From Candidatus Oxydemutatoraceae bacterium (GTDB lineage Bacteria; Pseudomonadota; Gammaproteobacteria; Poriferisulfidales; Oxydemutatoraceae), in assembly GCA_965220085.1 (NCBI GenBank), contig CBDCOZ010000001.1, positions 32,001 through 96,000 of the forward strand: 64,000 nucleotides of DNA. Reading direction: 5' to 3'. Both the position numbers and the translations under genes were made by a program. Below, in pieces: positions 6,002 to 45,889 of this stretch (its first letter is position 1; every line of letters begins with the position of its first letter). The notes below the pieces were generated by a model. The model did no database searches and had not been told where the DNA came from. It was given only the letters and a program-made list of their open reading frames with translations.

Positions 6002-6080
6002 TGGCCGGCGGGGCTCTGGGGCGCAAAACGGCTAAAGCGGCAACTGTTGCCCGTGGGGAAAATATGCATATAATGCCACT

Positions 6081-6378
6081 ATCACGATTTGAGGATTGAT
6101 TAAAAAGGTTGCAACAGTCGCCGGGGGCTCTTCTCCTTTAGCGCCCGACGCGTAGTGAAACTGTCCGGCAAGCATGTAAACTAATCGCCGAGACAGAGCA
6201 AAAGACTCGATATACATCCTCAGATATCGAACGGAGTGGGGTGGCATGCGAAAGCATCGCCACTCCGTTCCACTTTGTGCAATGACGACTGACACAAAAT
6301 TGTTTCTGTCGATGAGTGGAGCGGAACACCGGAGCATCGTACGAACAACGATCGACACGACCGAACGAAACTTTTCAA
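6081..6378 (+). ncRNA. Candidate structured ncRNA 1, copy 2
   Basis: TATAAT at 6069-6074; same helices as 3316-3602. Confidence 0.6.
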
Positions 6379-6504
6379 ACATTTGCAGTCTATGCTGTGG
6401 TGCGTTCCTGATGGGCACCACAGCACCCTATCGATCTTAGAAATGCATCGGCGCATCATCGACCTGCCGGACGACAGCACAAGAAGGAAGCGCCGCCCGC
6501 GTGA

Positions 6505-6670
6505 GACCCCGACAGAAACACATCCGAAGCGCAGGTCAACCGCTTTGCGCAGGGAGTGCGAGCGCGCCGAGAATGTAATGCGTCGCAAGCGCAAGCCGAC
6601 CAGTGCGCCGGAACAACCGCAAGCCCTGCGCCCATCTCTGTGGTCGGCGCACTGGGCGGCGCCGTGCGAG
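6505..6670. ncRNA. Candidate structured element 2, copy 2
   Basis: Homologous to 3761-3926. Confidence 0.5.
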
Positions 6671-6778
6671 GCGGTCCGTCTTCGCCGAGCACAAGCACCG
6701 AGCCTACGCCTGTTGCGCCGAGCATACCCACAGAGGTCCCGCAATAAGAATAAAAATCGCGTTTCGTAGTCATGCCAT

Positions 6779-6846
6779 TTGACACGCAAGCGCTACTTGT
6801 TCTATAGTTGCAGACTTTGTATAATGCCAGCAAACAGAACTGGCAA
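6779..6846 (+). promoter_or_regulatory. Promoter/5'UTR module B, copy 3 (TTGACA-N18-TATAGT)
   Basis: Repeat of 4275-4339. Confidence 0.75.
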
Positions 6847-6897
6847 ATTTAAACATTCGACTCTTGAGGAGACTAACATGAAAAAAAGGAAACTAAC

Positions 6898-7449
6898 ATG
6901 AAAAAATACCTTAATTACTTTTATTGGCCTATGTTAGGCACCGCGGCGCCTATGACTAGGACTGCGCCAATGAAAAAAGTCATTGCAACCGTAATCTTGT
7001 GTATCCTGACAAGCGCCGCTTGCGCCCCAAAAGACTTTCAATCCTCCTTAACACTTGATAGTGATAGGTGCAATGCGCAGTGGCTGCACCGCGCCAATGG
7101 TATAGAATTGACATCTGATAGTGATAGCGGCACCCCCCGGTTAACACTGCGTTCGCGGATGTTTGTTACTATTCAAACCAACACAGTGGGACGACTGGAA
7201 AACAGTTCGGGCAGAGTGTTAATCACTAGCGATGACGATGGATCAGGCAATAATTTCGGCATTAGGGGAGTTCTTGAGCCGGGCACTTACTACATAAGAG
7301 TTGCGGGCTTTCAGAACTTGCCGTCATGCCGTTCATCAACGGGCGAGGGTACTTCCTCCATAAGAGTTGCGGGCCATCAGAACACAACGCTGAACATAGA
7401 CGCCCGTGCTCCCCGTGACGGTGATCCTGTCATTGGCGGCGGAGGCTGA
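6898..7449 (+). CDS. Lipoprotein with a pre-peptidase C-terminal (PPC)-like domain
   Basis: Lipoprotein signal MKKVIATVILCILTSAAC (alternative start 6970); DDDGSGNNF...LEPGTYYIRV motif. Confidence 0.65.
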   Translation: MKKYLNYFYWPMLGTAAPMTRTAPMKKVIATVILCILTSAACAPKDFQSSLTLDSDRCNAQWLHRANGIELTSDSDSGTPRLTLRSRMFVTIQTNTVGRLENSSGRVLITSDDDGSGNNFGIRGVLEPGTYYIRVAGFQNLPSCRSSTGEGTSSIRVAGHQNTTLNIDARAPRDGDPVIGGGG

Positions 7450-7461
7450 GGCGGCGCTCTG

Positions 7462-7995
7462 TCACTGACCGAGTGTCGCCAGCTTGAACTGTAGCAGTTT
7501 GCCGCGCAGCTCTTCGGACAGGCCGCTGATGTTTGCATAGTCAAAATCCTGCGGGATAGCCGTTTGCTCGGTGTCCATCATGCGCTGAATTTCCTGCTCC
7601 TGACGCGGCAGGTAGCCGGCATAAGCGGCGGTCGCTTCAAGTTGCTCGACCGCTTGCTCGTCGTTTAGCGGGTCGGGCAGTTGCGCAAGGGCTACGATGT
7701 CGGCGTAGCGAATGTCCGGCCGGCGCAACAACTCGGTCGCACTGCAAGTGTTTTTCAGACTGATGTCGCGGGTGCTTGCCTCTTGCGGTGTAATCTTCAG
7801 TGCGTCAATCTCACGCACCAGATGGCTCTTGCCAATCCCGCCGATGGCCGGATTGCAACTCATCTGCCCGACAGTCTCTATGCTGTGCGTCAGCAGAAGC
7901 GTGTGCGCGCCGGTACGCGCCGCCGCCAGCGCCGCCTCGGTCCCCGCGTGCCCGCCGCCAACGACAATGACCTCAAATTCTTGCTGGTTAACCAT
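7462..7995 (-). pseudogene. mnmG: Internally deleted mnmG/gidA (tRNA U34 modification enzyme)
   Basis: N-terminus [14 protein letters not shown]...[22 protein letters not shown] fused in frame to C-terminal ELLRRP...YAGYLPRQ...DFDY...GLSEE; 177 aa versus the usual ~630 aa. Confidence 0.85.
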
Positions 7996-8030
7996 GCCGC
8001 ACATTCTATCACTCCCCCCTCGCGGGGGAG

Positions 8031-8241
8031 TCGGCGAGCGCAGCAAGCCGGAGAGGGGGACAGCCTCATACTTGCACTAACCAACACTCCCCCCTCGCGG
8101 GGGAGTCGGCGAGCGTAGCAAGCCGGAGAGGGGGAAAAGGAAAGTTCGTGCAAGAAGCTTCCCCTCACCGCATCGTCCATCGCCTTCGGCTCGGTCTCTG
8201 CACTTGGTGCAAGCCGGAAACTTTCCCGCAAGGGGAGAGTA
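8031..8241. repeat. REP/MITE-like palindromic repeats
   Basis: Two ACTCCCCCCTCGCGGGGGAGTCGGCGAGCG units plus an element homologous to 235-360. Confidence 0.75.
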
Positions 8242-8254
8242 TGCACGGTGCTAA

Positions 8255-10000
8255 TTACGCTTCCGTTTTGGTCGGGATACGAATAGATTTGACAAGGGCT
8301 TGAGTCTTCTGCGGCGGCGCTTGTGTCAATGACGCCACCAGCACACCGACGCCCAAAGCGAGCCACATAAAGACAAAGCCGATTCCTTCGGGAGAAACGC
8401 CGAAAAGCCATTGCGCCTTTGTGCCGCCGAGAAATTTGAAATAGAGGATGTAGGAGAAAGTTGAAACCAGCCCGACGAGCATCGCTGCGATAGCGCCCTG
8501 CTGATTCATGCGTGTCCAGAAGATGCCGAGGAAGAGGACTGGGAAAAGCGAGGCGGCGGCAAGTCCAAAGGCAAAGGCCACCACTTCGGCCACAAAGCCG
8601 AGTTCGGATGCATAGAGGCCGAGCAGACCGGCGGCAATCACGGCAGCAGCCGCTGAGAAGCGGGCGAGCATAAGTTCCGTGCGGTCATGCATATTCGGCA
8701 TGAGCGTGCGGCGGAATAAATCATGGCTTATCGCCGAGGAGATAACCATCAACAAGCCCGCCGCCGTTGATAAGGCCGCGGCCAAGCCGCCGGCGACGAC
8801 CAGTGCAATCACCCAATGCGGCAATTGTGCGATTTCGGGATTGGCGAGCACAAAAATATCGCGATTGGGATTGACCTCATTGGCAAGTCCGTCCGGTGCG
8901 TGCGGCCCGCGATGCTGCATGTGGCCATCGCCGTTCTTGTCGTCGTATCGCACGAGCCCGGTCTTCTCCCATGACTTATACCATTGCGGCACCGGCTTGT
9001 CGCCTGCGGCGAGGATCTCTTCGGCGCGCGCCTCATAATCTTCCTCATCAGTGATATAGACCGCCTCATTGACGGAGTCGATAAAATTGATGCGCGCAAA
9101 AGCCCCGACGGCCGGCGCTGTCGTATAAAGCAGCGCAATAAAGAGCAACGCCCATCCTGCCGAAACGCGCGCGGCGGGCGCTGATTTCACCGTGAAGAAG
9201 CGGATGATTACATGCGGCAGGCCGGCTGTGCCGAACATCAAGGCGGCGGTAATGCAGAAAACATCCATCGTGGACTTGTGGGCGGAAGTGTATTCCAGAA
9301 AGCCCAGATCGCGCAGCACCTGATTGAGCTTTTCAAGGACGGATATTTCCGTTCCTTTGACATCGGAGATGAAGCCGAGTTGGGGAATCGGATTGCCGGT
9401 GATGATGAGCGAGATAAAAATCGCCGGCACGGTATAGGCGAAAATCAGCACGCAATATTGCGCGACCTGCGTGTAGGTAATGCCGTTCATGCCGCCGAGC
9501 ACGGTATAGGCAAAGACGATGACCATGCCGATGAGAATGCCGATGTCAAAGGGAATGCCGAGGAAGCCGGAGAAAGCCACGCCCACGCCCTTCATCTGCC
9601 CGGCGATGTAGGTAAAGGAGACGAACAGCGCACAGAGCACCGCGATTACGCGCGCCGCGTTGGAATAATATCTGTCGCCGACAAAATCCGGCACGGTGAA
9701 TTTTCCAAAATTGCGCAGGAAGGGGGCGAGCAGCAGGGCGAGCAATACATAGCCGCCCGTCCAGCCCATCAGATAGATTGAGCCGCCGTAGCCGAGAAAA
9801 GCGATGAGCCCCGCCATGGACAAGAAGGACGCCGCCGACATCCAGTCCGCCGCGGTGGCCATGCCGTTCATCACCGGATGGACATCGTGGCCCGCCACAT
9901 AGAAATCCTCTGTGGAGCGCGCGCGCGCCCAGATTGCAATCGCGACATACAGCGTGAAAGTGAGGCCGACAAAAAGAAAAGTCCAAAGCTGCTGATCCAT
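8255..10000 (-). CDS. actP: Cation/acetate symporter (sodium:solute symporter family)
   Basis: NGMATAADWMSAASF, GWTGGY, GTAGLPHVIIRFFTV motifs; multi-TM. Confidence 0.9.
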   Translation of the reverse strand: MDQQLWTFLFVGLTFTLYVAIAIWARARSTEDFYVAGHDVHPVMNGMATAADWMSAASFLSMAGLIAFLGYGGSIYLMGWTGGYVLLALLLAPFLRNFGKFTVPDFVGDRYYSNAARVIAVLCALFVSFTYIAGQMKGVGVAFSGFLGIPFDIGILIGMVIVFAYTVLGGMNGITYTQVAQYCVLIFAYTVPAIFISLIITGNPIPQLGFISDVKGTEISVLEKLNQVLRDLGFLEYTSAHKSTMDVFCITAALMFGTAGLPHVIIRFFTVKSAPAARVSAGWALLFIALLYTTAPAVGAFARINFIDSVNEAVYITDEEDYEARAEEILAAGDKPVPQWYKSWEKTGLVRYDDKNGDGHMQHRGPHAPDGLANEVNPNRDIFVLANPEIAQLPHWVIALVVAGGLAAALSTAAGLLMVISSAISHDLFRRTLMPNMHDRTELMLARFSAAAAVIAAGLLGLYASELGFVAEVVAFAFGLAAASLFPVLFLGIFWTRMNQQGAIAAMLVGLVSTFSYILYFKFLGGTKAQWLFGVSPEGIGFVFMWLALGVGVLVASLTQAPPQKTQALVKSIRIPTKTEA

Positions 10001-10002
10001 CG

Positions 10003-10293
10003 CTAAGACTGTGCCCCCTGTTCTTCAAGGCCGAACTTTTTTTCAATGCGCCGCATCGCATGGCAATAATAAAATATCAGCGCGACAAAAATATAGATGG
10101 AACCGTTTTGCGCAAACCAGAAGCCGAGCGGTGCGCCGCCCAAACTGAAATGATCCAAAAAGTCGCGAAACAATATGCCGGCCCCGTAAGAAGCAAGAAA
10201 CCACAGCACGAGCAACCCTCCCGTAAGACGCAACACCGCGCGCCAATAGGCTTTGGTGTCAATGACGCGCCGAGATGGTGATTTTTCCGACAT
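10003..10293 (-). CDS. DUF4212 small membrane partner of ActP
   Basis: YW...LGGAPLGFWFAQNGSIYIF motif; directly upstream of actP. Confidence 0.85.
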   Translation of the reverse strand: MSEKSPSRRVIDTKAYWRAVLRLTGGLLVLWFLASYGAGILFRDFLDHFSLGGAPLGFWFAQNGSIYIFVALIFYYCHAMRRIEKKFGLEEQGAQS

Positions 10294-10545
10294 CCTTCTT
10301 TCTGATAAAAACTTTCCCTGTCGAATGGCAGGGAGGCTTATATGATAAATCATCGTGTTGCATTTGGTGGCTGTGGAGACGCATCCGAGACACGTTGCGA
10401 TTCGGCTAAGGAGGAGTGCGCATAATGCGACCATCGTTCCCCCTTCGCACGGGACAAATAAGGTAACTTTGCTCAAAGGACGCTCAAATTACCATCGTTC
10501 CCCCTCGCGGGGGAGAGTCGGCGTAGCTGTGCTACGCCGGGGAGA

Positions 10546-10623
10546 GGGAAGTTTGTTGGAGCTTGCAAGGGGAGTGGAGCGATGCAGTGGGGGACAAGCC
10601 CCTGCCAGATGAACTCAACTCTT
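10546..10623 (+). repeat. 78-bp imperfect direct repeat, left copy
   Basis: Aligns to 26523-26600. Confidence 0.7.
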
Positions 10624-10671
10624 ATTATTTGCAAACGGCAGTTGGGCTGATTTGCCGGATGGAGAGTCTTG

Positions 10672-12795
10672 TCACGGTAAGTCCAATTGTTTTTTCATGC
10701 TTGCACATAAATCGTAGGTGGACATACCGACGATTAAGTCACTTTCCCCTCCTTCGTTGATATTAGGATACCAATACAGTCCGCAACGAGCCAATATCCG
10801 TTCCAGTGATTGCATCAAAGCATAGTATTTGGATTCTTCTGAGTCCGAGTCGCATAAATTTGCCAAAGTATTCCACTCACCTTCAATAAAAAACCTGAAT
10901 ATGTCATAGGATTTAAGTCTCTTAAAAAAGTCATCCCTTTCTTCAACTGAAGATATAGCGAAATAATCTGCAAGGGAGATTCCCAGTTGATTAATCAGTG
11001 TCTGCGATATGTTCGCTAACTGTTGCAAATCTTCATCTGTCCCAGTGTTTTTATAACGTTCAATAGCCGGAAGGAAATCTGTCTGAAAACTCCCTACGGA
11101 ATTCAGCGCTTGTGATTCCACATGTTCCAGAATAATACGGTGAATGAGGCCGTCCTGTTCAACCCCATTTTGTTCTGCATCAAGCTTCCCATATGTATTA
11201 AATAAGACATGACATATTTGGGTGGGTTTTTTCCAGCGTGTCATCACGGTCGCAGTGGTTCTGAATACATCAGAGTAAGTATTCTCTCCACAAACCTTTA
11301 TTTGGTTGTAATGTGTAATCATAGCAAGGCTGAAGAGCTTACGGAGGAACTTGAACATAAGGCTTATTCTTTCTTCATTGCCTTGACTTTTGAACATGGC
11401 TGTATTTACGACAAGTGTATTCTTGAACTTATTGCGCGGTGATGAGACAACATCTATCCAGCATATGTTTGCGTCTAGATTACCCCCTTCGGCAGTGTTT
11501 GTATCTTCACTTGTAATTTCTTTCACAGTTGCAACTACATCATCGGTGAATATACAGGTTGCACGAAATGGCTCTGCAAGAGACAAGTAATTTCTTGATG
11601 TCTCAAATAGCCTTGCAAGCCTTGAAAATGTTTCCTTGCTGCTTTCATCCAGCGAACAATCGTTTTTGAATTCCAGACTAACAGAGATACCCGAAGGGCT
11701 TTCTGTATTCATGTACCATTTTTCTTCTTCTAAAACGCCACCCTCATCAAACATCTCAGTAGAAAATTGATCATGGTCTATTCCTATCTTCGATTGCAGG
11801 GTTTGGAATCTGCAAGATTCTTGAGATGAAATGAAAGATGACCAACTCGCAGAAGCAATTCCTGCATTTATATTCTTTGTGCTCTTAACCTCCGGTTGTT
11901 CCTTGGCATTCGGGTGTTTGCCTAAAAGCCCGACTTCAGGAGATAGCGGGAGAAATACATACCTTAAATCTTTATTGGAAACATAAGCAGAATGTTTCCA
12001 GCAGTTATCAGCCTCCGAGTAGCTGATAGCTCCTGTATCCCCTAGCAAGAATGGTTCTTCATCTGGTTCCAACAAATCCCACTTAAAACTTTCGAATATC
12101 CCGAGTGTCACTTGATTTATGGCCTCAGGCAAATTTTCCAAATGAATCTTTTCATGGTCAATTGATGATAGTCCCTGTTCAAGGAATGGAATCATTTCGT
12201 GCATTCCTCGTTTAAGCATATCTGGCCCAAGCAATTCTATTATTTTTTTAATTTGCGCCTCCCATGTTTGCACGAGGGTCACATGTGTAAGCGGGTCTCT
12301 TATGTGCTTGGCATGAGTATAACTAATTGTCCGTGCCTGAGCTCTCGCTTCTTCATCTGATGTGGATGAGAGACGGTTATGTACATAGCCAGGGTGTTCC
12401 CCGGCAAGAACTTTGCTTAAAGGGGTGTGAATTTTCTTCACCAAATCATGCATTTGGTCTCTGATATGACCGCGGGAATGAAGGTTATGAATAAAATCTA
12501 TAAGCGTAGTTATGTCAGTTGGTTCTAACTCTCTGGTTTCCAGTACTTGAGCGACTGTTCTGGCGTAAGAGTTTTCTTTTTCGCTCAATTGCTGTTCAAT
12601 ATCAATACTCTCATCAGGCCCCGTATAAAAATTATTCTGTGCAAACACATTTTTGGTATTCGTTTTGTGCGGTTGTTCTTTCCCTTTTATGTAGTGCCAA
12701 ACTTGTTTAGTAGAGCTCTCGGAATCTATTGCAAAATTCCGAATAAGGAAATCTGGAATCAAATGATGCCTTTTCGGTTTTGAACCTGTCCCCAC
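10672..12795 (-). CDS. DUF4238 domain protein with long C-terminal extension
   Basis: N-terminal HHLIPDFLIRNF...FAQNNFY and FLLGD...FLPLSP motifs. Confidence 0.7.
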   Translation of the reverse strand: MGTGSKPKRHHLIPDFLIRNFAIDSESSTKQVWHYIKGKEQPHKTNTKNVFAQNNFYTGPDESIDIEQQLSEKENSYARTVAQVLETRELEPTDITTLIDFIHNLHSRGHIRDQMHDLVKKIHTPLSKVLAGEHPGYVHNRLSSTSDEEARAQARTISYTHAKHIRDPLTHVTLVQTWEAQIKKIIELLGPDMLKRGMHEMIPFLEQGLSSIDHEKIHLENLPEAINQVTLGIFESFKWDLLEPDEEPFLLGDTGAISYSEADNCWKHSAYVSNKDLRYVFLPLSPEVGLLGKHPNAKEQPEVKSTKNINAGIASASWSSFISSQESCRFQTLQSKIGIDHDQFSTEMFDEGGVLEEEKWYMNTESPSGISVSLEFKNDCSLDESSKETFSRLARLFETSRNYLSLAEPFRATCIFTDDVVATVKEITSEDTNTAEGGNLDANICWIDVVSSPRNKFKNTLVVNTAMFKSQGNEERISLMFKFLRKLFSLAMITHYNQIKVCGENTYSDVFRTTATVMTRWKKPTQICHVLFNTYGKLDAEQNGVEQDGLIHRIILEHVESQALNSVGSFQTDFLPAIERYKNTGTDEDLQQLANISQTLINQLGISLADYFAISSVEERDDFFKRLKSYDIFRFFIEGEWNTLANLCDSDSEESKYYALMQSLERILARCGLYWYPNINEGGESDLIVGMSTYDLCASMKKQLDLP

Positions 12796-13295
12796 CGGGT
12801 TGTCCTCCTTTTTGCTTGGTTGTACTTAGGTGCTATGGAATGACACCTACATTATTCTATGCCAGAGATTGTGCCCATGCTTAGAATTATGTCAGTTGTC
12901 AGCAGAGCGGCTTGTCGGCATGGAGCGGCAAGCCCAGATGCCGCACATCGCGGCGGCAACGATAGCGCTAAGAGGCACAGGGATATTCCAACAGTCAGTT
13001 ACGATAAACGAGTCTTGCAAAACAAACAAAAGCGGGAATGCTTCGGGAGCGAATAAAGCGACACCGTTTGTGATAATATGAGGCTTTCCAAACGAGTCCG
13101 CTTTAGGAGAGCATGGCAAAATGCAGATGAAAACAGATTTGCAAACCCAAGACCCGAAGAAAAAAAGGCCAGCAGAGATGGTTTCCGGCGAGTCTGTCAA
13201 CCCGACACAAGGCTATGCCCGTTGCACAGCGGTTCCAGCGTATCAGTCCGTGAGAAAAATAGGCAATAACTCCTAAGGAGCACACGGTTAGTCGT

Positions 13296-14282
13296 ATGCC
13301 ATCTAACATGACTCGTAAGAGGAACAAAAAGCATAACAAAGTCAAAGCTGTTTCTTTGTTCAGCGGTTGCGGCGGGTCAGATAGCGGAGCGCTCGCTGCG
13401 GGCTTTGATGTAATTTTTGCTAATGACATCATGCCTTATTCCAGAGATGTCTATCTGGCTAACTTGCCGGAAACAGACTATCAATGCAAAAACATTGAAG
13501 AGATTGCTTCATTCCCTAAAGCGGATCTGCTCATTGGCTGTTATCCATGCCAAGGGTTTAGCCAAGGCGGGGCGAGAAAATCTGATAGAGCGGTTAACTA
13601 TCTTTACAGACAATTTCGTCGATCATTGTGCGCAATAAAACCTAAAGCATTTATTGTCGAAAATGTGGCTGGCATGTACAGAAGTAATTTTAGCCGTCTA
13701 TTAAATAATCAATTGGTATGCTTCCGCACAGCCGGTTATTCAGTCACTCACAAGATGCTTAATGCGGCAGACTATGGCGTTGCTCAAGAGCGCCGCCGCA
13801 TTTTTATTGTAGGCATCCGTTCAGATTTGGGAGAAAAATATACATTCCCTTGCCCTACTCATGGCCCTGCGGGAAGGAAACCGATTAAGACTATAGCCAA
13901 AGCTCTGGATGGCTTGCCAGAGTGGCCAAAAGGAAAGTTTCTAGAACAAGATTTTCATTGGTACTATATGTCTCGTAATAGACGAAGAGATTGGTCTGAA
14001 CCCAGCAAAACGATTGTTAGCAATGCTCGCCATATGCCATTGCATCCGATTACTCCCGCGCCTGTTCGCATAGGAAACGATGAGTGGAGGTGGCTGGATA
14101 AGGATAAAAATTTGCCGAAGAGGAGATTCTCTTATGAAGAAGCTGCGTGTCTCCAAGGGTTCGAGAAAAAATTTGTGTTTCCGGAAAACGGGAACCTTAT
14201 GGCTAAATATAAGGTCATTGGCAATGCTGTGCCGCCGCCGCTATTTGAAGCTGTGGCCAATGCATTGCCAGATATTTGGTAG
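13296..14282 (+). CDS. C5 DNA cytosine methyltransferase
   Basis: LFSGCGG, YPCQGFS, ENV, QERRR, GNAVPP motifs. Confidence 0.95.
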   Translation: MPSNMTRKRNKKHNKVKAVSLFSGCGGSDSGALAAGFDVIFANDIMPYSRDVYLANLPETDYQCKNIEEIASFPKADLLIGCYPCQGFSQGGARKSDRAVNYLYRQFRRSLCAIKPKAFIVENVAGMYRSNFSRLLNNQLVCFRTAGYSVTHKMLNAADYGVAQERRRIFIVGIRSDLGEKYTFPCPTHGPAGRKPIKTIAKALDGLPEWPKGKFLEQDFHWYYMSRNRRRDWSEPSKTIVSNARHMPLHPITPAPVRIGNDEWRWLDKDKNLPKRRFSYEEAACLQGFEKKFVFPENGNLMAKYKVIGNAVPPPLFEAVANALPDIW

Positions 14283-30095: not shown

Positions 30096-30398
30096 TGCGT
30101 GGGGATTCTGGTTGCGTGTCTGGACATTATGCCATATAAGTGGTGGGTGTGGTGGTTTGCTAGGCCAGAGTGTCTGGTTGGCATTGCGAGGCGGTGCGGG
30201 TCGCGTTGCAAGGTTTCGGCGGGGTCGCCTCGCAGGGCGTTGCGGTCGGCGTCGCAGGATTTCGGCGCGGGCGTGGGTAGCGGCGACTGCATCGGCGGCA
30301 AATAATGCCATCACATAATAGTGTTATACTTTGTCGCACGGTACCTTTCTCCGGGTCAAACCCGAAAAGATTGACGAACCGAACTTAACTATTACGTC

Positions 30399-30495
30399 GT
30401 ATCAGGGCGGTATGATAATGCACTCTCATTGTTTCGGACGCTTGGATGACAACGGAGAACGCATCAGGGCGGTATGATAATGCGCCCTCATTGTT
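30399..30495 (+). repeat. 35-bp direct repeat (62-bp period) containing a TATGATAAT promoter-like box
   Basis: ATCAGGGCGGTATGATAATGC..CTCATTGTT twice. Confidence 0.75.
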
Positions 30496-30535
30496 GCAAC
30501 CTCGCTACAATGCGCAAAGATATTTATTAAAACCT

Positions 30536-31933
30536 ATGGGAACAGATAATACCAATCCGCCGCCTTCCAAAAAGGCGCCCAAAATCCTGATCATTGACTG
30601 CCATTCCGGCCTCGCTTTGTGCACCTATTCCATGCTGAAAGAACTGGGGGCGGACGCGGAAGCGTTCGGCGACATAGTTATTTACGGTTGCCCCTCGCAA
30701 TCGGTATTTCCCAAGCGATTCCTACGCCATGACTATCCGCCCCGCCCTTCGCGCATAGGAAGACTCCTGTCTCTGTTCCGGTTCATCATCCAAAACCCGG
30801 CCACCGCCGTCAGACACACTCGCGATTATTATCGGGCGGGCCTCAGAAGCGACGGGATAAAGTGGAGGGAATGTGTCCGCCCCTCCCCGCTCCGTTGCAT
30901 AATCAGCGGCTTCACGGGGCGGGGCGTGAATCGTTCGGCGATTCAAAAACTGCTGCGCCTTCCTTGCTATCGCTCCTACTTCTCACAGTTTGATACTTTG
31001 GTTTGTTGCTTCCCGCCGATTACGTTTCAGTTCGCAAAACTGATATCGGAAATGTACGGACAACGCATCATCCTCACCATGGGGCACCGGTTCAACATAC
31101 GCATTCCCCGGAACAAAGACTATAACGAGCGCCTGAAAGAGGAGTTGCTGGAACTCATGAGAGATGACAAGCACGCGGTCGGCGCGATGACACATTACGA
31201 CCGGCTGTATGCGCAACACTATCTGTCCAAAATAGACAAACAACTGATGCCGGAAGCCATTCCGGTATTCGGCGTGGAAGCGTTCCACATTAAACTCAGT
31301 CCGAAAGCAAAACCCGCGTGTAACACGATATTGATCACTCCGGTGCACGTCGTTGGTGATGGCAGGTTGCCGCTGGATGTGTCTCATATAAACCGCGACT
31401 ACGAAGCGTTTTGCGAGAAAAACGGTTTGCAAACGGATTATGTTTTCAAAACCATAAGACAGCATTGGAACTTCAAACCGTATTCTTATGACGACCTCAG
31501 TTCGTTTGCCGGAATCGCGATAGTGAATTTTCCATACAGCTCTTTTTCCACATCCCAAGTGGAGACCTATGGTTGTTGTCTGCCTTACTTTTACCCCGAC
31601 GAAGAGTTTTTTGTGCGCCACGACTATGACAATGACTATCGGCTACACCCGATATATATGAGCGAAGCGGAGTATCGGCGGGTCGAGGAGGATATAGACA
31701 GCCTTGACTCGCCAAACAGCCTCTTGCCGGAAGCGCGCAGAAAGTGGGTGCGGCATGGCTATAACCGCCACACGCAAAACGCAGTCGCGTTCTCCGACTG
31801 GGATGACCTGTTTCAGAAAATACACGAGGCGTTGCCGCGATACGCCGAAATATCACGGGCAATATATGAAGAGAATGTGGCTCGCCGCAAAAAGCATCTG
31901 GAACTTTGGCGGCGGTTGCTCAACATGCCATGA
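30536..31933 (+). CDS. Hypothetical protein, possibly glycosyltransferase-like
   Basis: Long ORF; C-terminal IVNFPYS.FS.SQVETY...LPYFYP resembles a GT-B nucleotide-sugar binding segment; start uncertain (30446 or 30536). Confidence 0.55.
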   Translation: MGTDNTNPPPSKKAPKILIIDCHSGLALCTYSMLKELGADAEAFGDIVIYGCPSQSVFPKRFLRHDYPPRPSRIGRLLSLFRFIIQNPATAVRHTRDYYRAGLRSDGIKWRECVRPSPLRCIISGFTGRGVNRSAIQKLLRLPCYRSYFSQFDTLVCCFPPITFQFAKLISEMYGQRIILTMGHRFNIRIPRNKDYNERLKEELLELMRDDKHAVGAMTHYDRLYAQHYLSKIDKQLMPEAIPVFGVEAFHIKLSPKAKPACNTILITPVHVVGDGRLPLDVSHINRDYEAFCEKNGLQTDYVFKTIRQHWNFKPYSYDDLSSFAGIAIVNFPYSSFSTSQVETYGCCLPYFYPDEEFFVRHDYDNDYRLHPIYMSEAEYRRVEEDIDSLDSPNSLLPEARRKWVRHGYNRHTQNAVAFSDWDDLFQKIHEALPRYAEISRAIYEENVARRKKHLELWRRLLNMP

Positions 31934-32334
31934 TCCAAGCCGTCTCCTTGAATGAAAAAGTGCGCTCTTAACGTCACAGCGTTGCCTGCAACAAGGTATG
32001 CCACTGCTACTCGCGCGCGCCCCGCCGCAGGTATTCGCTTTCAAACAGCGCTGCCTGCAACGGGGTATCCGCCACTGCTACGCCTATCCCCAATGCCCGA
32101 AGATGAAGGCTCAAGGAACGCTTCCGCCGCGCGCCTTGAGAAGCGTTTGCGGAGTTTGAAGCGGGTTTGTTGACGACCGAATGTGCGCACATTCAATGAG
32201 CGTCGGATAAAGTATCTGGGATGGTTTAACGCCAAAACACCACGAAGGGATTACACTATGGGCTGGAACTTCAAGCGCTTATGACACCCACAATATTTGC
32301 CCCAGATGTCCGCTATGTCTTGGTATCAAACAAG

Positions 32335-32499
32335 GTTTTGACTCCTCAATCAAGTCTGATATAATCCCGCACGATTTCTTCATAAGGGGGGTTTCAATAG
32401 TTTTTGACGCCCCCCGATCAAGTCTGATATAATCACAATCACGGTTGATAAATATCGCCTAGAGTTTTGACCTCTCCTCGATCCTAGTCTGGTTCAATC
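32335..32499 (+). CRISPR. Degenerate type II-C mini-array: 3 repeats, 2 spacers
   Basis: Repeats GTTTTGACTCCTCAATCAAGTCTGATATAATC (32335-32366), GTTTTTGACGCCCCCCGATCAAGTCTGATATAATC (32400-32434), GTTTTGACCTCTCCTCGATCCTAGTCTGGTTCAATC (32464-32499); spacers of 33 and 29 bp; adjacent to the cas genes. Confidence 0.85.
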
Positions 32500-32550
32500 C
32501 AGTGAATGCGGTTCATAGCGCTAATGAGTTGCGGGGAAGTCTTAACTAAC

Positions 32551-32601
32551 AAACCACCCAGGCGCTCCCTGCGAAAGCACATTGTCTCGGGTGGTTTTTT
32601 T
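32551..32601 (+). terminator. Hairpin plus T-run downstream of the array (terminator, or 3' end of a tracr-like RNA)
   Basis: AAACCACCC...GGGTGGTTT followed by Ts; internal TGC-GAAA-GCA hairpin. Confidence 0.6.
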
Positions 32602-32615
32602 ATTAACTCGGGATT

Positions 32616-32813
32616 TTATTCCCCAAAGATTGTCTGTCTGGGCACGATGAGTTTAGTCCGCTCGCTTCCGCAATCATAATCAGAACCCGTAACAGTTATT
32701 CATCTAACAAAGCGTTCCGGAATTTTGTTGCTTGCTGTCGTTGCTTCTTGGTTAGCGCCGGCCAGTCAAACCATTCCGAGCGCCCATCCTGCTTTGAGGC
32801 GTTTTAGTTCTTC
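32616..32813 (-). pseudogene. cas2: cas2 remnant (frameshifted, internally deleted)
   Basis: Hand translation across frames: LKAGWALGM/FDWPALTKKQRQQATKFRNALLDE* then ...TVTGSDYDCGSERTKLIVPRQTIFGE*; matches the type II Cas2 W..vMFDLP..TK..R..AT.FR..LL.DG N-terminus. Confidence 0.75.
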
Positions 32814-32914
32814 GCGCTTTTTCTGCCCATCGGGCGATCCGCAAACCAAGAACCCTTTCTTTGCGGATGAGGGAATTGTGTCGGAGGATATGAACAGTGT
32901 TGTGACTCGTTCAT
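32814..32914 (-). pseudogene. cas1: cas1 N-terminal remnant
   Basis: ATG overlaps the cas9 stop (ATGA); SHNTVHILRHNSLIRKER/FLVCGSPDGQKKR with frameshifts resembles the first ~35 aa of type II Cas1; expected position between cas9 and cas2. Confidence 0.55.
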
Positions 32915-35900
32915 GCTTTCGTCTTTCTTAGAACAAACCTCTTCTCTTTCCTATAGGGCTCTTCTTTCAGAAAGTGTTTCAAAGCGATTCTGCGCTTCTC
33001 ACCTTTCGCGGATGTCATTTCTATCTTGCCGGCAAATTCAATCGTGTTAAGCGTGTATATGCCGGCGCTTATTTCTTTCTGCTTTTCCATCAGTATGGTC
33101 TCCGTCACCTCTATGAGACACTTTGAATGGAAAAAGCCCAATACTTTTTGTATGCCCGGGTTGCTCTCTAATTCTTTTCCGATCGCATATCTTGACTCAA
33201 ACACCCTTACCGGTTTCACCCGCACTTTGTTTTTGCTGTCCAGATAAAGAAACTGTCCTTGGTCCGACTCTTTCCGAGTTTTAAATTGTCCGAATTGACC
33301 TCTGGAAATGTCTTTATAATTAGTGATATCTCCGTCTGCCACTCGGACTTTTTTCACTGCGGGGGTATCTTTGCTTAATTGGAAATTCTTGCAATATTTC
33401 CTCCATTGTTGCTCGGTCATTTTTTTCCGCCGATTAACCCATTTTTCCACTTTCTTGCGAATATCGGCATCGTATATCCTTGTAACATCCTTTTTTGTTT
33501 TCGCCAACCCGTCCCATTGGCCCTTTGAGGTGTCCCCCAAAGAGTCAAGAGGCACTCGATAAGTCGCTTGCTCTTCGCCGTTGGCAATGTTTCTCTTCCC
33601 GTAGACTGTCTCCCTGAAGATAGGCTTGTTAAAGCATATTTGGCGCGGCATGACGCGCTCAAGAACCGCGCCAAAGAATTTTTGCGGATCAGCCCTGAGC
33701 GCCTCCGCGGGAAGAGAAAAACAAAGCCGCCTGTCAGAACCTCTTGCCCAGTTTGGGATAAAAGACAATATCATCGCATCCAGCGCATGGCGCCGATTAT
33801 CATTTATGTTCTTTTCCGCATTCGCTCCTTCGTGCAGTAACTCAAGCAATTTATATTTTTGCGCAACCGCATTTGTCGCGCCCCTGCCGAGCACAGCGAC
33901 CTTTCTCTCCTCTCCGTCAAAATCCGCGTTCCAACCAAAATGTAAGCGCACGATCGCCTGCGTTAATTTTGCAATCCAAGCCGTTTGCCGGAGTCCGACG
34001 CGATGATTAACGGCCTTTGCGGCATCTTCCATGTTTGTCGCCGATAGCAGCGCGGCTTTAAATTTGGGGAATTTCTTTCCTCTCCCTTTCACCATCTCAT
34101 GGAGGCGCTCTATAAAGGCGCCCCATTTGCCTTCCCGCTTTAGCCAATCAGATGGCAAGCGGTCGCCTTGTTTGCGCTTACACTCTTTGCTGGCAAGCAC
34201 GAGATTCATGTAGGCGCACGGGCCGCCGTTGGAATCCGGAACGATAGGGGTTATCTCTGCCTCTTCAAAAAGTATCGCATCGGGCAAATCGTATGATTCG
34301 GACAGAGTGATCGGACGATCACAAAATATACAACGCTCCTCTTGCTCTTTCCAAAGTTGCCATTTCAGTAAGTTTTTCTGAGAAGGAGATATCCATTTTT
34401 CTTCCAGTTCTTTTTGCGCTTCCTTATCTCTTTGTTCGCGCTCCTCTTTATGTTTCTCGTAGTCGTTTTTTCTTTGTTCCGGTAACCAATCTTCTCTGAC
34501 AAACTCAATCGCCACTCTGTCGGGTGTGCCAAATTCCCTTTGCATATTTTTTATCTGCGAATAAAAAACCCCCAATCTATGGCGAACTATGGGGTCATTC
34601 TGGTCGGCAATCAGTTTTTGAATGGCCTTGGCTTGCTCGCCTTCTCCGCCTGCGGTTTTATATTCCGACAGCGTTTGATTGGGGATGTAAAGCCCGTCCC
34701 AACTATTGCCCATATGCTCCATAAAGGCCAAATCTTCTTTGACGAGCCCCTTTCTCTTATCAAAGTTTCCGGCAATCAGCCTCATTTCATTTTCCCTCAA
34801 GAAGTCTTGGGGCGATTTTCCGGAAAGAATCAGGTCTTTGACTATTCTCAGAGCCGGGCGCGAAAAGCGAGACCTTCCGAAAATTTTCGGAGCATCCACT
34901 TTGCCATTGTTCGGAGCCACACAATCTCCGCCATATTTATGAATATATTTTTCTAAGTCTTTTTTTGTCAGGCTTAGTTTCTTCGTAATCTTTTTTTCTA
35001 ATCTGTCTCGGACATTGGCATGAACCGCGTCCATGCGCTCATTGAATATGGCTCTGATCTCCTCGTATGCAAATGGTTTTGTCTCTTCGCCGGCTATAAA
35101 CCGGATGTTCTTTAGTTTCATCAAAAATGTTACCTGTGCGGAAAGGAGCGAGTCTTCCGAGATGTTGCCATGTGTGCCTTTGGGGGCGGCGCGGCACGCA
35201 TTGAAGCGAGGGATAAGAGCGCATTTATTCGGAGAGCGGTTATCAAATGTCGGTATCTTTTGTGCCAAAATTCCTTGCCAGTCGGTTTCCTTGCCTCTGA
35301 GCAACGCTTTCCTGCCCCCCGCTTTTTCGTATAGTTCGGGGTTGCCGCGCTCGGCATGATATGATGCATAGGCTTCGCCTGTGGGTCCATACAGCAGATA
35401 GTCTTCTTTTCCCGTGAGGGCGGGGTATTGCTTTTCCGCTTGCTTGAACATGCAACGCAGTTGCTTCTCTATCATGTGCCTGGGATACACGGCCATTGTG
35501 GGAGGCAACCACTTTGCGTCCTCTTTTGTTTTGCCTCCTTCTTTGTCTAATCTTTCTCTTGCTATCGGATCTTTCGTCTTGCCGACATGGGTGCTTTTGG
35601 CAGTATGGTCAATACGCAGTTTGCATGAGTCGGGTGATTTCGGATTCCATAAGCCCATGCGATACGCTTCCCAATAACACGGGTGGCGATGATTCGCATT
35701 TTTGCTTATTTTGCTTATGTTTTCTATTTCTTTCTGAATGCAGGCTGCGCGTTTGGCAGTCTCAGTTTTCTCCTTGTTTTCTTCTTTGCTCTTTGCATCA
35801 TCTTTATCGGCGAACAGCAGAGCGCTTTTCCATGGGGCATCCTTGTCAAACCCGCGTTTTTGAATCGCCGAATGAAACGCTTTGTACAATTGCCACTCTT

Positions 35901-36297
35901 CCAGTTTTTTGCCTTGCAAGAGCATAATCTGCAATAACGTCCCGCAGTACACTGTGTCATCGTCCTTTGCGGGAAATTCTCTTTCCAGTCTCTCGTCGCC
36001 GCTCTTAAGTTTTTCTTTTCCTTCGCTACTGACAATCTTCGCGCCGTTCAGCGTTTCCAGCCCCGCTTCTCGGAAAACTTTCCGCAGCCATTCCTCTCGT
36101 TTTTTGTGTGCCAATCTGCTTCTATAAGCGCGTCGCCGCTCCGCCGCAGACTTCGTTGACGCAAACTTATCGGGAATCAACAAAGAGTCAACTTTGTTAA
36201 ATTCAAACGGGTCGCCTTTGGCTCCGCGAACTGCGTATCCCAGTGAGCCGGTTCCAATATCAAATGACCAAATATGTTTTTGTTGATTGTTCGTCAT
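32911..36297 (-). CDS. cas9: Cas9 (type II-C-like, 1128 aa), RuvC intact, HNH catalytic residues substituted
   Basis: RuvC-I WSFDIGTGSLGYAV, Arg-rich bridge helix ERRRAYRSRLAHKKRE, RuvC-II VAIEFVRE, HNH fold QEERCIFCD...EITPIVPDSNGG...NLVLASKECKRKQG, RuvC-III RRHALDAM. Confidence 0.95.
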   Translation of the reverse strand: MTNNQQKHIWSFDIGTGSLGYAVRGAKGDPFEFNKVDSLLIPDKFASTKSAAERRRAYRSRLAHKKREEWLRKVFREAGLETLNGAKIVSSEGKEKLKSGDERLEREFPAKDDDTVYCGTLLQIMLLQGKKLEEWQLYKAFHSAIQKRGFDKDAPWKSALLFADKDDAKSKEENKEKTETAKRAACIQKEIENISKISKNANHRHPCYWEAYRMGLWNPKSPDSCKLRIDHTAKSTHVGKTKDPIARERLDKEGGKTKEDAKWLPPTMAVYPRHMIEKQLRCMFKQAEKQYPALTGKEDYLLYGPTGEAYASYHAERGNPELYEKAGGRKALLRGKETDWQGILAQKIPTFDNRSPNKCALIPRFNACRAAPKGTHGNISEDSLLSAQVTFLMKLKNIRFIAGEETKPFAYEEIRAIFNERMDAVHANVRDRLEKKITKKLSLTKKDLEKYIHKYGGDCVAPNNGKVDAPKIFGRSRFSRPALRIVKDLILSGKSPQDFLRENEMRLIAGNFDKRKGLVKEDLAFMEHMGNSWDGLYIPNQTLSEYKTAGGEGEQAKAIQKLIADQNDPIVRHRLGVFYSQIKNMQREFGTPDRVAIEFVREDWLPEQRKNDYEKHKEEREQRDKEAQKELEEKWISPSQKNLLKWQLWKEQEERCIFCDRPITLSESYDLPDAILFEEAEITPIVPDSNGGPCAYMNLVLASKECKRKQGDRLPSDWLKREGKWGAFIERLHEMVKGRGKKFPKFKAALLSATNMEDAAKAVNHRVGLRQTAWIAKLTQAIVRLHFGWNADFDGEERKVAVLGRGATNAVAQKYKLLELLHEGANAEKNINDNRRHALDAMILSFIPNWARGSDRRLCFSLPAEALRADPQKFFGAVLERVMPRQICFNKPIFRETVYGKRNIANGEEQATYRVPLDSLGDTSKGQWDGLAKTKKDVTRIYDADIRKKVEKWVNRRKKMTEQQWRKYCKNFQLSKDTPAVKKVRVADGDITNYKDISRGQFGQFKTRKESDQGQFLYLDSKNKVRVKPVRVFESRYAIGKELESNPGIQKVLGFFHSKCLIEVTETILMEKQKEISAGIYTLNTIEFAGKIEMTSAKGEKRRIALKHFLKEEPYRKEKRFVLRKTKA

Positions 36298-36381: not shown

Positions 36382-36481
36382 CGCAACTCAAATTATACCC
36401 GCAGAATGTCAAAGTAACCTAGCCATTGATGAATCTTGGGTTGCTACGCAATTCAGATTATGCCCGCGGAAGGTCAAAGTA
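36382..36481. repeat. Two 35-bp imperfect repeats separated by 30 bp, upstream of cas9
   Basis: CGCAACTCAAATTATACCCGCAGAATGTCAAAGTA (36382-36416) and CGCAATTCAGATTATGCCCGCGGAAGGTCAAAGTA (36447-36481). Confidence 0.8.
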
Positions 36482-36639: not shown

Positions 36640-37893
36640 GTGGGGCCACACAAAATCCGGAGAGTCTCATGCTATGCGCTTTATGATGATGTTATGACCG
36701 CCTGCAACATAGATGATATAAGGCAATTGCTGGACGATGCATCCGGTCTGGATTTGAGTGCGCCGCAGTACAATCCCACATTCATGCAAATAGCGGGGCG
36801 CCCGCACCTTGAGGATGTTATCAGCAACACGCTGCGATTCTTTATGGACCCGAAGGAGCCCCATGAACTGGGAACCTTGTTCTTGGAAGCATTGTTGGAT
36901 GCGCGGAGCGAATCGGCAAAACAGAATTGCCCCGACATATCTTCCTCCCGCGATATAAAAGTTGAGCGTGAGCATAGCACAAAGGAGAGCGGGAGTGCGC
37001 CCAGGATAGATCTATGGGTTGAAAGCGACACACATATAATCGCCATAGAGAACAAGATATACGCCGCTTCTCACAATCCATTAAAAGATTATTACGCGCA
37101 TGCTAAAGACCAATCTAAAGGGGAGCCAATCTGTTGCTACTTATGCCTGAACAGACCTAAGTTGAGCAATCAGGAATTACACAACTTTGAGGCGATTGAG
37201 TACCGAAAATTTTTGGACAAGATAGAAGGAAGGCTGGGTAACCGACTTGCTCATTCGGATCAGCAACATTACACTCCCTTTGTCTTGGACTTTCTCAGAC
37301 AATTGAAATATCTATCGGAGGGCTGCCCCATGAATGAAAGTTTGATAAACCTGTTCAAGGAACACAAAGAGCACAAGGAAGTCGCTCCAAGCTTAGTGAA
37401 CAGCATTCGTGAAGACAGCGCGCGTGTGAAAGGCGAAGTGAAAAAGGTGAAAGGCGAAGTGGAAAAGGTGGCCAAGGGGCTAACAGGTGACGGAGGCGAA
37501 GAATGGAATATATGGGCATGGGATGTTTTGCTATTACATTGTGTCTTGGTTTGTGACTATGTAAAGAAGTTTAGTGGGTCAGAAACAAAAGACATGAAAA
37601 TAGCAATAGATGCCGTGTATTCCATAACGGGTGAATGGGACATTTTCGTTTTCTCTCGTCAAGAACGGGTCTCAGATAAGCACAAGGAATTTTGGGATTC
37701 ATTAAAGTTGAAAGATGGAGATACCAAAGGTACAGATATCCCGAGCGAATATAAAGAAAAGTGGGAAGATTGGGAGAAGGAAGAGAAAGGCGCCCCGCGT
37801 GTACGGGTAGCGCACTTTGAAGGTGGCACAGGTTCCGAGGTTGTTGTTGAGTGTCTAAAGAAAGTTTTAGAACAGATCACATCGCCCGGCTAA
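36640..37893 (+). CDS. PD-(D/E)xK nuclease superfamily protein (PDDEXK_4-like)
   Basis: E...SNTLRFFMDP...HELG, RIDLWV...IAIENKI; start may be 36694. Confidence 0.8.
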   Translation: MGPHKIRRVSCYALYDDVMTACNIDDIRQLLDDASGLDLSAPQYNPTFMQIAGRPHLEDVISNTLRFFMDPKEPHELGTLFLEALLDARSESAKQNCPDISSSRDIKVEREHSTKESGSAPRIDLWVESDTHIIAIENKIYAASHNPLKDYYAHAKDQSKGEPICCYLCLNRPKLSNQELHNFEAIEYRKFLDKIEGRLGNRLAHSDQQHYTPFVLDFLRQLKYLSEGCPMNESLINLFKEHKEHKEVAPSLVNSIREDSARVKGEVKKVKGEVEKVAKGLTGDGGEEWNIWAWDVLLLHCVLVCDYVKKFSGSETKDMKIAIDAVYSITGEWDIFVFSRQERVSDKHKEFWDSLKLKDGDTKGTDIPSEYKEKWEDWEKEEKGAPRVRVAHFEGGTGSEVVVECLKKVLEQITSPG

Positions 37894-40657: not shown

Positions 40658-40734
40658 TGGCGCGCCCGAGAGGATTCGAACCCCTGACTTCTGCCTCCGG
40701 AGGGCAGCGCTCTATCCGGCTGAGCTACGGGCGC
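40658..40734 (-). tRNA. tRNA-Arg(CCG)
   Basis: 77 nt, CCA end, GGTTCGAATCC T-arm, anticodon arm CTGCC-CTCCGGA-GGCAG. Confidence 0.97.
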
Positions 40735-40743
40735 ACGATGTGC

Positions 40744-40819
<76 letters not shown>

Positions 40820-44072: not shown

Positions 44073-45455
<1,383 letters not shown>

Positions 45456-45889
45456 GCGCCGCCCGCGGCAGGCAAGCGCCCGTCGCCTGTAACGCCCGCA
45501 AAGCCGACATCATCCTGTCGGTCAACCGCCGCCCGGTTTCCGACTTTGACGAAATGGAGACCGTCATAGAGCGCGACAAAGCGCTGTTGTTGCGCCTGCA
45601 ACGCGACGGCAAGGTCATCTTTTACGCCCTGCGCCCGTAGGCGCCGCCCGCGGCAGGCAAGCGCCCGTCGCCTGTAACGCCCGCAAAGACGACATCATCC
45701 TGTCGGTCAACCGCCGCCCGGTTTCCGACTTTGACGAAATGGAGGCCGTCATAGAGCGCGACAAAGCGCTGTTGTTGCGCCTGCAACGCGACGGCAAGGT
45801 CATCTTTTACGCCCTGCGCCCGTAGGCGCCGCCCGCGGCAGGCAAGCGCCCGTCGCCCGCTCAGCGCAACGATCTGCGCAAAGACGCGC

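Follow-up and report, generated by a model that had tools for sequence, protein, structure and literature searches.

Here we describe a cas9 gene that stands among the remains of a type II CRISPR locus in a 64,000-nt stretch of DNA, below called the window (assembly GCA_965220085.1, contig CBDCOZ010000001.1, positions 32,001-96,000 of the forward strand; window coordinates are counted from its start). The product of this orphan gene (P0001) has both catalytic residues of its HNH domain replaced and the four of RuvC retained, and the same genome encodes, on contig C2 (C2:224257-227685), an intact paralog (P0003) that is 73% identical to it. Residues were compared in a family alignment of 141 sequences, made up of an outgroup of 138 together with P0001, P0003 and a second close sister, P0002, which comes from a Logan contig. 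The gene, the expression signals read from the sequence in front of it, and the residues that matter below are the following.

32911..36297, minus strand: orphan cas9, open frame of 1128 codons without internal stop
36329-36324, minus strand: TATAAT, -10 box 5' of the ATG at 36297
36309-36304, minus strand: AGGAGA, ribosome-binding site 5' of the same ATG
36259..36261, minus strand: D13, RuvC-I catalytic residue, kept
34504..34506, minus strand: E598, RuvC-II catalytic residue, kept
34251-34246, minus strand: T683-P684 (ACC CCT), with Pro substituted for the catalytic His of HNH; the paralog has CAT where the orphan has CCT
34189..34191, minus strand: S703 (AGC), replacing the first Cys of the second HNH CxxC pair (C703S); TGT in the paralog
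34179-34177, minus strand: K707 (AAG), a Lys where the paralog has the metal-binding catalytic Asn (AAT)
33883..33885, minus strand: R805, RuvC-III (G805R), Gly in 138/138 outgroup sequences
33805..33807, minus strand: I831, RuvC-III (R831I), Arg in 138/138 outgroup sequences
33790..33792, minus strand: R836, immediately before catalytic H837 (H836R), His in 138/138 outgroup sequences
33787-33789, minus strand: H837, RuvC-III catalytic residue, kept
33778-33780, minus strand: D840, RuvC-III catalytic residue, kept

The orphan protein is a Cas9, the effector of type II systems, since it matches curated Cas9 models over its full length (NCBIfam NF049971, 790 bits against a cut-off of 375, residues 9-1110; TIGR01865, 169.2 bits against a cut-off of 100). 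Pfam gave no match to it even at E = 1, whereas the Pfam HNH and RuvC_III models match both sisters. At the HNH site, every one of the 138 outgroup sequences, like the two sisters, has His in column 684 and Asn in column 707, and among the 243 fetched relatives that cover HNH these residues are present in 242 and 239, respectively. In a phmmer alignment to solved Cas9 chains, P684 is aligned with the His of 8hnt and, in the case of 8hnw and 8hnv, with an engineered Ala. A sequence-only reading of the window had proposed that a T-P-I-V-P motif replaces the catalytic His motif, that Lys replaces the second catalytic Asn and that one active site has therefore been hit several times; both codons read as it said, the equivalence of the residues holds across the family, and to the two catalytic positions one can add C703S, a Cys that the sisters carry. 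In contrast, residue 683, the Asp of the usual D-H motif, is not specific to the orphan, being Thr in P0003 as well and Ala in P0002. In SpCas9 the H840A mutant is a nickase. According to the accessible text of PMC8112549, cleavage by HNH is lost altogether with N863A and falls sharply with D839A. By analogy with these mutants, the orphan would no longer cut the target strand, because both the general base and the metal ligand of its HNH domain have been replaced.

The sequence-only reading also regarded the protein as RuvC-intact, and as a candidate regulator or nickase. As far as the catalytic Asp-Glu-His-Asp tetrad is concerned (D13, E598, H837 and D840) this is correct. Nevertheless, RuvC-III is the most changed domain of the protein: G805R, R831I and H836R all fall on residues that are identical in both sisters as well as in the outgroup, the Pfam RuvC_III match has been lost, and the score against a profile of the 138 outgroup sequences drops by about 30 bits (138.6 for the orphan, 169.0 for P0002 and 172.7 for P0003). 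By motif position, combining an alignment to a Nme-like chain with the SpCas9 motif, we take R831 and H836 to be the counterparts of SpCas9 R976 and H982. Mutants at these SpCas9 positions are described in the available portions of three papers: with R976A and H982A the nick in the non-target strand is less strictly positioned (PMC12571883), K974A and R976A impair non-target-strand cutting only (PMC5680257), and H982A is active alone and dead when combined with H985A (PMC8112549). The position equivalent to H985 is a Leu in the Cas9 family of the orphan. Taken together, the RuvC-III substitutions, the behavior of the SpCas9 mutants and the family Leu imply that the orphan may nick poorly or not at all, and the view of it as a clean RuvC nickase is therefore not secure.

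Read errors, which the sequence-only reading had named as a way in which its proposal could fail, are unlikely to lie behind the substitutions. Logan contigs of run X1 show no difference from the window over 32300-34166 and 34141-35269, at a word depth of about 64-66 (about 64 over both HNH codons). X1 is probably the source sample, and would then provide an independent assembly rather than an independent sample. In run X2, from the same study as X1, 17 of 30 bins are covered, mostly without differences, and the His-to-Pro codon lies outside that coverage; run X3 contributes seven partial reads of 90-95% likeness that are probably unrelated to the orphan stretch. None of the listed runs containing the stretch is an RNA run.

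The paralog belongs to a complete locus on C2, whose parts are listed here in coordinates of C2:214000-230214.

10249-13686, minus strand: cas9 (P0003)
9347-10252, minus strand: cas1, type II Cas1 (TIGR03639)
9009-9404, minus strand: cas2
about 4559-8887: array of 66 identical 36-nt repeats and 65 spacers

These three are the only cas genes of the locus, and they are followed by a stretch resembling a trans-activating CRISPR RNA (tracrRNA) and by the array. Each repeat of this canonical array bears a full promoter, and the final repeat runs directly into the tracrRNA-like stretch; therefore, the fold of the last spacer, repeat and tracrRNA resembles that of a single-guide RNA, here a natural one (-69.3 kcal/mol, z = -6.4). 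The orphan cas9 is 78.8% identical to the canonical one at the nucleotide level over 3619 nt, and beside it in the window the other components of such a locus survive in pieces.

32801..32910, minus strand: cas1 stump, about the first 36 codons, whose ATG start has become ACG, carrying a 2-nt deletion; roughly 800 nt of the gene are missing
32700-32797 (with a 1-nt insertion) and 32607-32701, minus strand: cas2 remains, with about 150 nt missing between the two pieces
32500..32602, plus strand: tracrRNA-like RNA; the lower-stem anti-repeat and the terminator hairpin are kept, the upper-stem anti-repeat is lost by a 5-nt deletion
32335..32499, plus strand: mini-array of three degenerate repeats and two spacers
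32335-32366, plus strand: repeat R1, with a near-consensus promoter inside
32367-32399, plus strand: spacer 1
32400-32434, plus strand: repeat R2, with a near-consensus promoter inside
32435-32463, plus strand: spacer 2
32464-32499, plus strand: repeat R3, without a near-consensus promoter

Since the window locus aligns piecewise with the C2 locus, the orphan is what remains of a full system and not a gene that arrived alone. The loss of cas1 and cas2 and the degeneration of the repeats, both pointed out in the sequence-only reading, are borne out: of the adaptation genes that normally accompany a type II cas9 only frameshifted stumps are left, between 32607 and 32910, and three repeats persist. 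The stumps differ by 11-19% from their canonical counterparts (those of cas2 being 87-89% identical). The GC content at third codon positions (GC3) is 0.51 in the orphan and 0.41 in the paralog, whereas the genome overall has a GC content of 0.555; the orphan being the nearer of the two, this suggests that it is the older resident of the genome.

The sequence immediately to the left of R1 might be taken for a leader. We rejected this, since what lies there (window about 32049-32334, abutting R1) belongs to a dispersed repeat about 285 nt long that has 73 further hits on C1, C2 and C3, 66-89% identical to the window copy; Rfam has no family that reaches its gathering score for it. After one copy, at C3:42690-42904 (minus strand), come the final 25 nt of the CRISPR repeat (96% identical), including the extended -10 box, and this repeat tail lies directly 5' of a gene with weak, sub-threshold matches to models of DNA methyltransferases (31 and 34 bits). 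The promoter borne by the repeat may now drive that methyltransferase-like gene.

The canonical repeats, as well as R1 and R2 of the orphan array, contain a -35 box, a spacing of 16-18 nt and an extended -10 box, with 11 of 12 positions matched; R3 does not. Since these promoters lie within the repeats, transcripts should start inside each spacer, and the one in R2 would yield a single RNA consisting of spacer 2, R3 and the tracrRNA-like part. The sequence-only reading spoke of fixed degenerate guides. Three degenerate repeats and two spacers are indeed present; the pairing of the repeats with the local tracrRNA-like RNA, in contrast, is no better than that of shuffled sequences. The three orphan repeats pair with it at -17.1, -17.4 and -21.2 kcal/mol, all within the range of the shuffles, whereas the canonical repeat does so at -26.4 kcal/mol (shuffles -16.7, standard deviation 3.1), close to its pairing with its own tracrRNA at -28.1 kcal/mol. 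Thus, if the orphan protein carries guides at all, the canonical array is their likelier source, and guide sharing with the canonical system is plausible.

As for what the orphan's own spacers might target, a blastn-short search of the whole genome turned up nothing beyond self-matches and a single match of 17 nt containing one mismatch (E = 0.62), which resembles the chance matches obtained with the 65 canonical spacers. The mini-array matched five phage records, the best at E = 2, and three plasmid records at E = 2, in searches that did not extend to IMG/VR or metagenomes. Cas9 regulators that work with a scaRNA or a long tracrRNA use a fixed small RNA that partly matches a host site beside a PAM (protospacer-adjacent motif), in a promoter or 5' UTR; neither orphan spacer gave a self-match above chance, short seeds being indistinguishable from chance without a PAM.

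Has the orphan gene been retained, or is it simply rotting more slowly than its neighbors? The two cas9 genes are separated by nine indels, all of them in frame. In contrast, the 306 aligned nt of the stumps have lost a start codon and gained a 2-nt deletion and a 1-nt insertion, in addition to the deletions of about 800 and 150 nt; at this density of small frameshifts about 22 would be expected in the orphan cas9, and none is observed in its 3384 nt. Change within the protein is also unevenly spread. Against the outgroup profile the orphan scores as well as P0002 and P0003 in REC (549.5, versus 543.8 and 538.0 bits) and RuvC-I (64.4, versus 66.8 and 66.9), and the same holds for RuvC-II and for the RNA- and DNA-binding lobes, whereas HNH has dropped (71.5, versus 82.5 and 84.4). 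Departures that are seen only in the orphan affect 6 of the 49 conserved columns in residues 641-900 but a single one of the 131 in the rest of the protein (Fisher p = 0.0018, the region having been picked after viewing the data), so that erosion is specific to the nuclease domains. Pairwise dN/dS (the ratio of nonsynonymous to synonymous substitution rates) between orphan and paralog is 0.25 overall and 0.33 in HNH; the corresponding ratio of uncorrected differences, pN/pS, is 0.60 in the stumps, where counts are small. The open frame, the domain-specific pattern of change, the dN/dS of 0.25 and the TATAAT and AGGAGA signals argue for continued selection on the orphan protein. A promoter scan found no match to a -35 box for its gene.

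We therefore favor a scenario in which a complete locus, with cas9, cas1, cas2, tracrRNA and array, saw its adaptation genes and its array decay and left the orphan cas9 behind, which selection would have kept as an RNA-guided DNA binder that is at most a weak or imprecise nickase of the non-target strand. The protein would be loaded mainly with crRNA:tracrRNA (CRISPR RNA paired with tracrRNA) from the intact C2 system and not with its own two spacers, and, once bound at a protospacer beside whichever PAM is recognized by its diverged C-terminal domain, it would obstruct or nick the DNA without making a double-strand break. We give about an even chance to this reading, in which the orphan was retained as a binder that nicks weakly or does not cut and that probably uses the guides of its paralog. 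The exaptation for gene regulation, self-tolerant targeting or nicking, rather than immunity, that the sequence-only reading had advanced is supported in part: the HNH hits, the disappearance of cas1 and cas2 and the three degenerate repeats are as it said, while the picture is altered by the intact paralog with its full system, the decayed state of the window locus, the erosion of RuvC-III, the poor pairing of the orphan repeats and the lack of a credible target for either spacer. Exaptation for regulation is possible, and escape from self-targeting and simple decay, which we consider below, are live rivals as judged from sequence comparison.

Several observations weigh against retention as a binder. 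The only relatives more than 45% identical to the orphan are P0002 and P0003, both with the catalytic His and Asn; none of 18 other genomes of the bacterial family contains a match to the orphan Cas9, and neither 5.8 billion proteins nor 1.84 billion representatives include a closer relative. Aligning the closest Cas9s, as the sequence-only reading advised, thus settled which residues are equivalent and revealed no clade, the substitutions being confined to a singleton; their age can therefore not be measured, and no clade displays their long-term retention. Dating by comparison with the paralog is blurred too, because synonymous difference along the cas9 pair runs from 0.22 at the 5' end to 0.57 at the 3' end, a mosaic that points to recombination between the two loci. 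HNH outside its catalytic residues has not accelerated (odds ratio 0.58, p = 0.17), which is compatible with a recent hit and equally with a structural role that has been retained, and the excess of changes in RuvC-III on the orphan side of the orphan/sister split is marginal (35 to 8, versus 155 to 90 elsewhere; p = 0.023, uncorrected for six tests). Furthermore, the RNA parts of the window locus look neutral. The tail of the tracrRNA-like RNA is 89.6% identical to the canonical one over 67 nt, which is no better than the cas2 stumps; the upper anti-repeat stem has been lost, the local RNA folds with z = -2.0 compared with -6.4 for its canonical counterpart, and the promoter in R3 is degraded. 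Finally, no credible target of either orphan spacer turned up in the genome or in the phage and plasmid records searched.

One may also consider that loss of function itself was selected, and that drift followed. Self-targeting, or a clash with an incoming paralogous system, could have favored missense survivors, leaving a gene that is useless and has so far stayed unbroken. Every other part of the window locus has indeed decayed, a newer, intact system of lower GC3 is present on C2, the hits cluster in the two nuclease domains as escape from self-cutting would select, and each key change is a single nucleotide away from the codon of the paralog. Nevertheless, H684P and N707K, the lost Cys and three or four RuvC-III hits need several selected steps in succession, and a second HNH hit adds no escape once the first has occurred. 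If, alternatively, the extra hits were neutral, they needed time, during which a neutral frame of 3.4 kb should have broken as the stumps did. No self-matching spacer is left, either. We regard this explanation as unlikely, without dismissing it.

Plain decay would mean that, once the adaptation genes had gone, nothing in the locus was under selection any longer and that only chance has kept the cas9 frame open; this appears decidedly improbable. In its favor are the stumps of cas1 and cas2, the degenerate repeats, the degraded tracrRNA-like RNA, the dispersed repeat that abuts the array and the singleton status of the gene. Uniform decay, however, would strike conserved columns everywhere and would break the frame within the time that sufficed to break the stumps, and it is disfavored because the cas9 has no frameshift whereas the far shorter stumps have two and a lost start codon, because conserved columns outside the nuclease lobe are nearly untouched, because REC fits the family profile as in the sisters, and because dN/dS is 0.25. 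That the orphan still cuts both strands by means of other HNH residues, or that its substitutions are assembly errors, is extremely improbable, for although the whole three-member subclade lacks the Asp before the catalytic His while P0003 stands beside a uniform array, so that this HNH site tolerates some change, the His and Asn are nearly invariant among relatives, Pro is unable to act as a general base, the Pfam HNH models match the sisters only, and the independent assembly is identical.

A second member of the family offers a parallel to the retained binder that we prefer. P0241 (1152 aa, about 30% identical to the orphan) is the sole other protein among the 243 relatives to lack the catalytic His, and there too it has been replaced by Pro. 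Its replacements (D13T, H684P, N707C, R831L, H836R and D840N) hit both active sites, and in comparison with its nearest relative, the intact P0227 (44% identical), it scores lower in all four nuclease segments and is rated equal in REC (258 versus 271) and in the C-terminal part (90 versus 77). P0241, a singleton from a Logan contig, is thus a candidate natural dead Cas9, and its sequence together with that of the orphan suggests that nuclease-dead Cas9s with preserved binding lobes arise repeatedly in this family. The change of His to Pro, that of the His preceding the catalytic RuvC His to Arg, and the loss of the Arg six residues before that catalytic His are common to both proteins, and may represent a common route to a non-cutting clamp. 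Single hits occur in other relatives as well (N707R in P0195, D13N in P0258). A broader proposal, which we put forward tentatively and consider rather doubtful, is that Cas9s of this family turned more than once into natural nuclease-dead RNA-guided binders, with the orphan as an early stage that shares the guides of its paralog and P0241 as an end stage; at the early stage the orphan might compete with the paralog, modulate its activity, or widen its reach to further PAMs.

The orphan may thus represent a Cas9 that in nature does not cut, or else a relic on the verge of breaking, and either outcome would be informative. Nuclease-dead and nickase Cas9s are central laboratory tools, and the natural cases described, in the literature available to us, are binding-only Cas12 effectors and a RuvC-dead phage Cas9. 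Should the orphan be expressed and bind DNA, it would show how a cell uses a non-cutting Cas9 beside a cutting one, whether to dampen immunity, to mark DNA, to nick it or to regulate genes, and it would provide a natural scaffold with potentially informative compensating changes around RuvC. If it is a relic, it would still record cleanly how a type II locus breaks down, with adaptation genes and array going before the nuclease sites and the frame going last.

The surroundings of the gene are a defence island of low GC content (0.40-0.46 over 10-26 kb) that occupies window positions 10672-31933 and 36640-37893. Besides type I and type II restriction-modification genes, it includes those for two cytosine methylases, a GHKL-ATPase restriction-like protein, McrBC, a PD-(D/E)XK protein matching PADLOC PDC-S26, and a 495-aa open reading frame (30446-31933) without family match. 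The PD-(D/E)XK neighbor was considered as a partner nuclease of the orphan and set aside, since PDC-S26 is a single-gene candidate in PADLOC, is absent from the canonical locus and gives no reason for a link. Likewise, a 35-nt pair at 36382-36481 is not a second mini-array; here the promoter region 5' of cas9, single in the canonical locus, has been duplicated in tandem over 65 nt, and the two 35-nt copies are 86% alike, each with a -10-like box. Two further pairs of direct repeats lie at 30398-30495 (36 nt, spacing 62, overlapping the start of the 495-aa frame and unlike the CRISPR repeat) and at 31976-32068 (24 nt, spacing 69, unrelated in sequence to the CRISPR repeat). Outside the island, genes for tRNA-Arg and tRNA-Thr are found at 40658-40819, and a 185-nt tandem repeat of three copies that are 98% alike (score 1078) is found at 45312-45857, in the high-GC part of the window.

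The NCBIfam model that best matches the orphan carries the name Cas9d, and subtype II-D was therefore considered. Repeat-borne promoters are a II-C trait, and the family profile finds its best solved matches among Cas9 chains 1055-1154 aa long (6jdq, 8hnt and 8d2k, for instance), which we take to be II-C enzymes. In the passages of PMC12669027 and PMC9755519 available to us, II-D is characterized by an adaptation module with cas4 and by a compact, deep-branching Cas9. The proteins considered here measure 1128-1145 aa, compared with the 600-1050 aa quoted for Cas9d and Cas9c2, and the canonical locus has cas9, cas1 and cas2 only. Genome-wide searches with PF01930 (cas4) are weak evidence here, one of them having missed the type V Cas4 on C3. 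This Cas4 is part of a type V-A system at C3:1910165-1913944, which comprises a Cas12a C-terminus, type V Cas4, Cas1 and Cas2. The arrangement of cas9, cas1 and cas2 without csn2 or cas4 that defines II-C is found in the C2 locus and in the family at large, whose members at 29-45% identity to the orphan are mostly from Verrucomicrobiota and allied phyla: in the loci of 80 relatives, cas1-like sequence comes after cas9 in 69 and cas2-like sequence in 64. The window locus itself has lost both. On gene content, protein length and the solved matches, the system appears to fit II-C better than II-D as the latter is defined in the accessible text of PMC12669027, and we rejected the II-D assignment.

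Several known systems resemble the orphan in part. With the II-C systems of Neisseria and Campylobacter the C2 locus shares the order cas9-cas1-cas2, the promoters in the repeats and the tracrRNA beside the array, whereas the window copy differs from them in having no cas1 or cas2, three degenerate repeats and an HNH domain without its His and Asn. In Francisella (scaRNA) and S. pyogenes (long tracrRNA), Cas9 represses genes by means of a fixed, partly matching guide; those Cas9s are nuclease-active, in contrast to the HNH-dead orphan, for which we found no supported target of this kind. In the full-text literature searched, which excludes supplementary files, we found no natural Cas9 with a dead HNH domain. 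The closest precedents for its setting are the orphan cas9 genes of Campylobacter (C. coli; CampyICE1), which, in the available text of bioRxiv 10.1101/2021.06.01.446523, lack adaptation genes, have short arrays and are proposed to use chromosomal parts in trans. There, too, the Cas9 may be a second one in a genome that has a full system; the RuvC and HNH motifs of the CampyICE1 Cas9 are nevertheless reported as conserved and its spacers as matching plasmids, whereas the window orphan is HNH-dead and has no target found. The variant II-C2 phage Cas9, as far as the accessible text of PMC12669027 describes it, is also a natural Cas9 with one nuclease domain inactivated, for which a non-immune, anti-CRISPR role has been proposed. 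In that recognized, phage-encoded variant, however, RuvC is inactivated and HNH apparently active, whereas the orphan is an HNH-dead singleton in a chromosomal defence island. That effectors of Class 2 with dead nucleases can interfere by binding alone is documented for natural Cas12 of subtypes V-M and V-C (same source, in the part available), a different protein family from that of the orphan. At the level of individual residues, the likeness is to the SpCas9 H840A and N863A nickases and to dCas9 (PMC8112549, in the accessible text), in which residues of the same classes have been replaced, there by engineering and in the orphan by nature.

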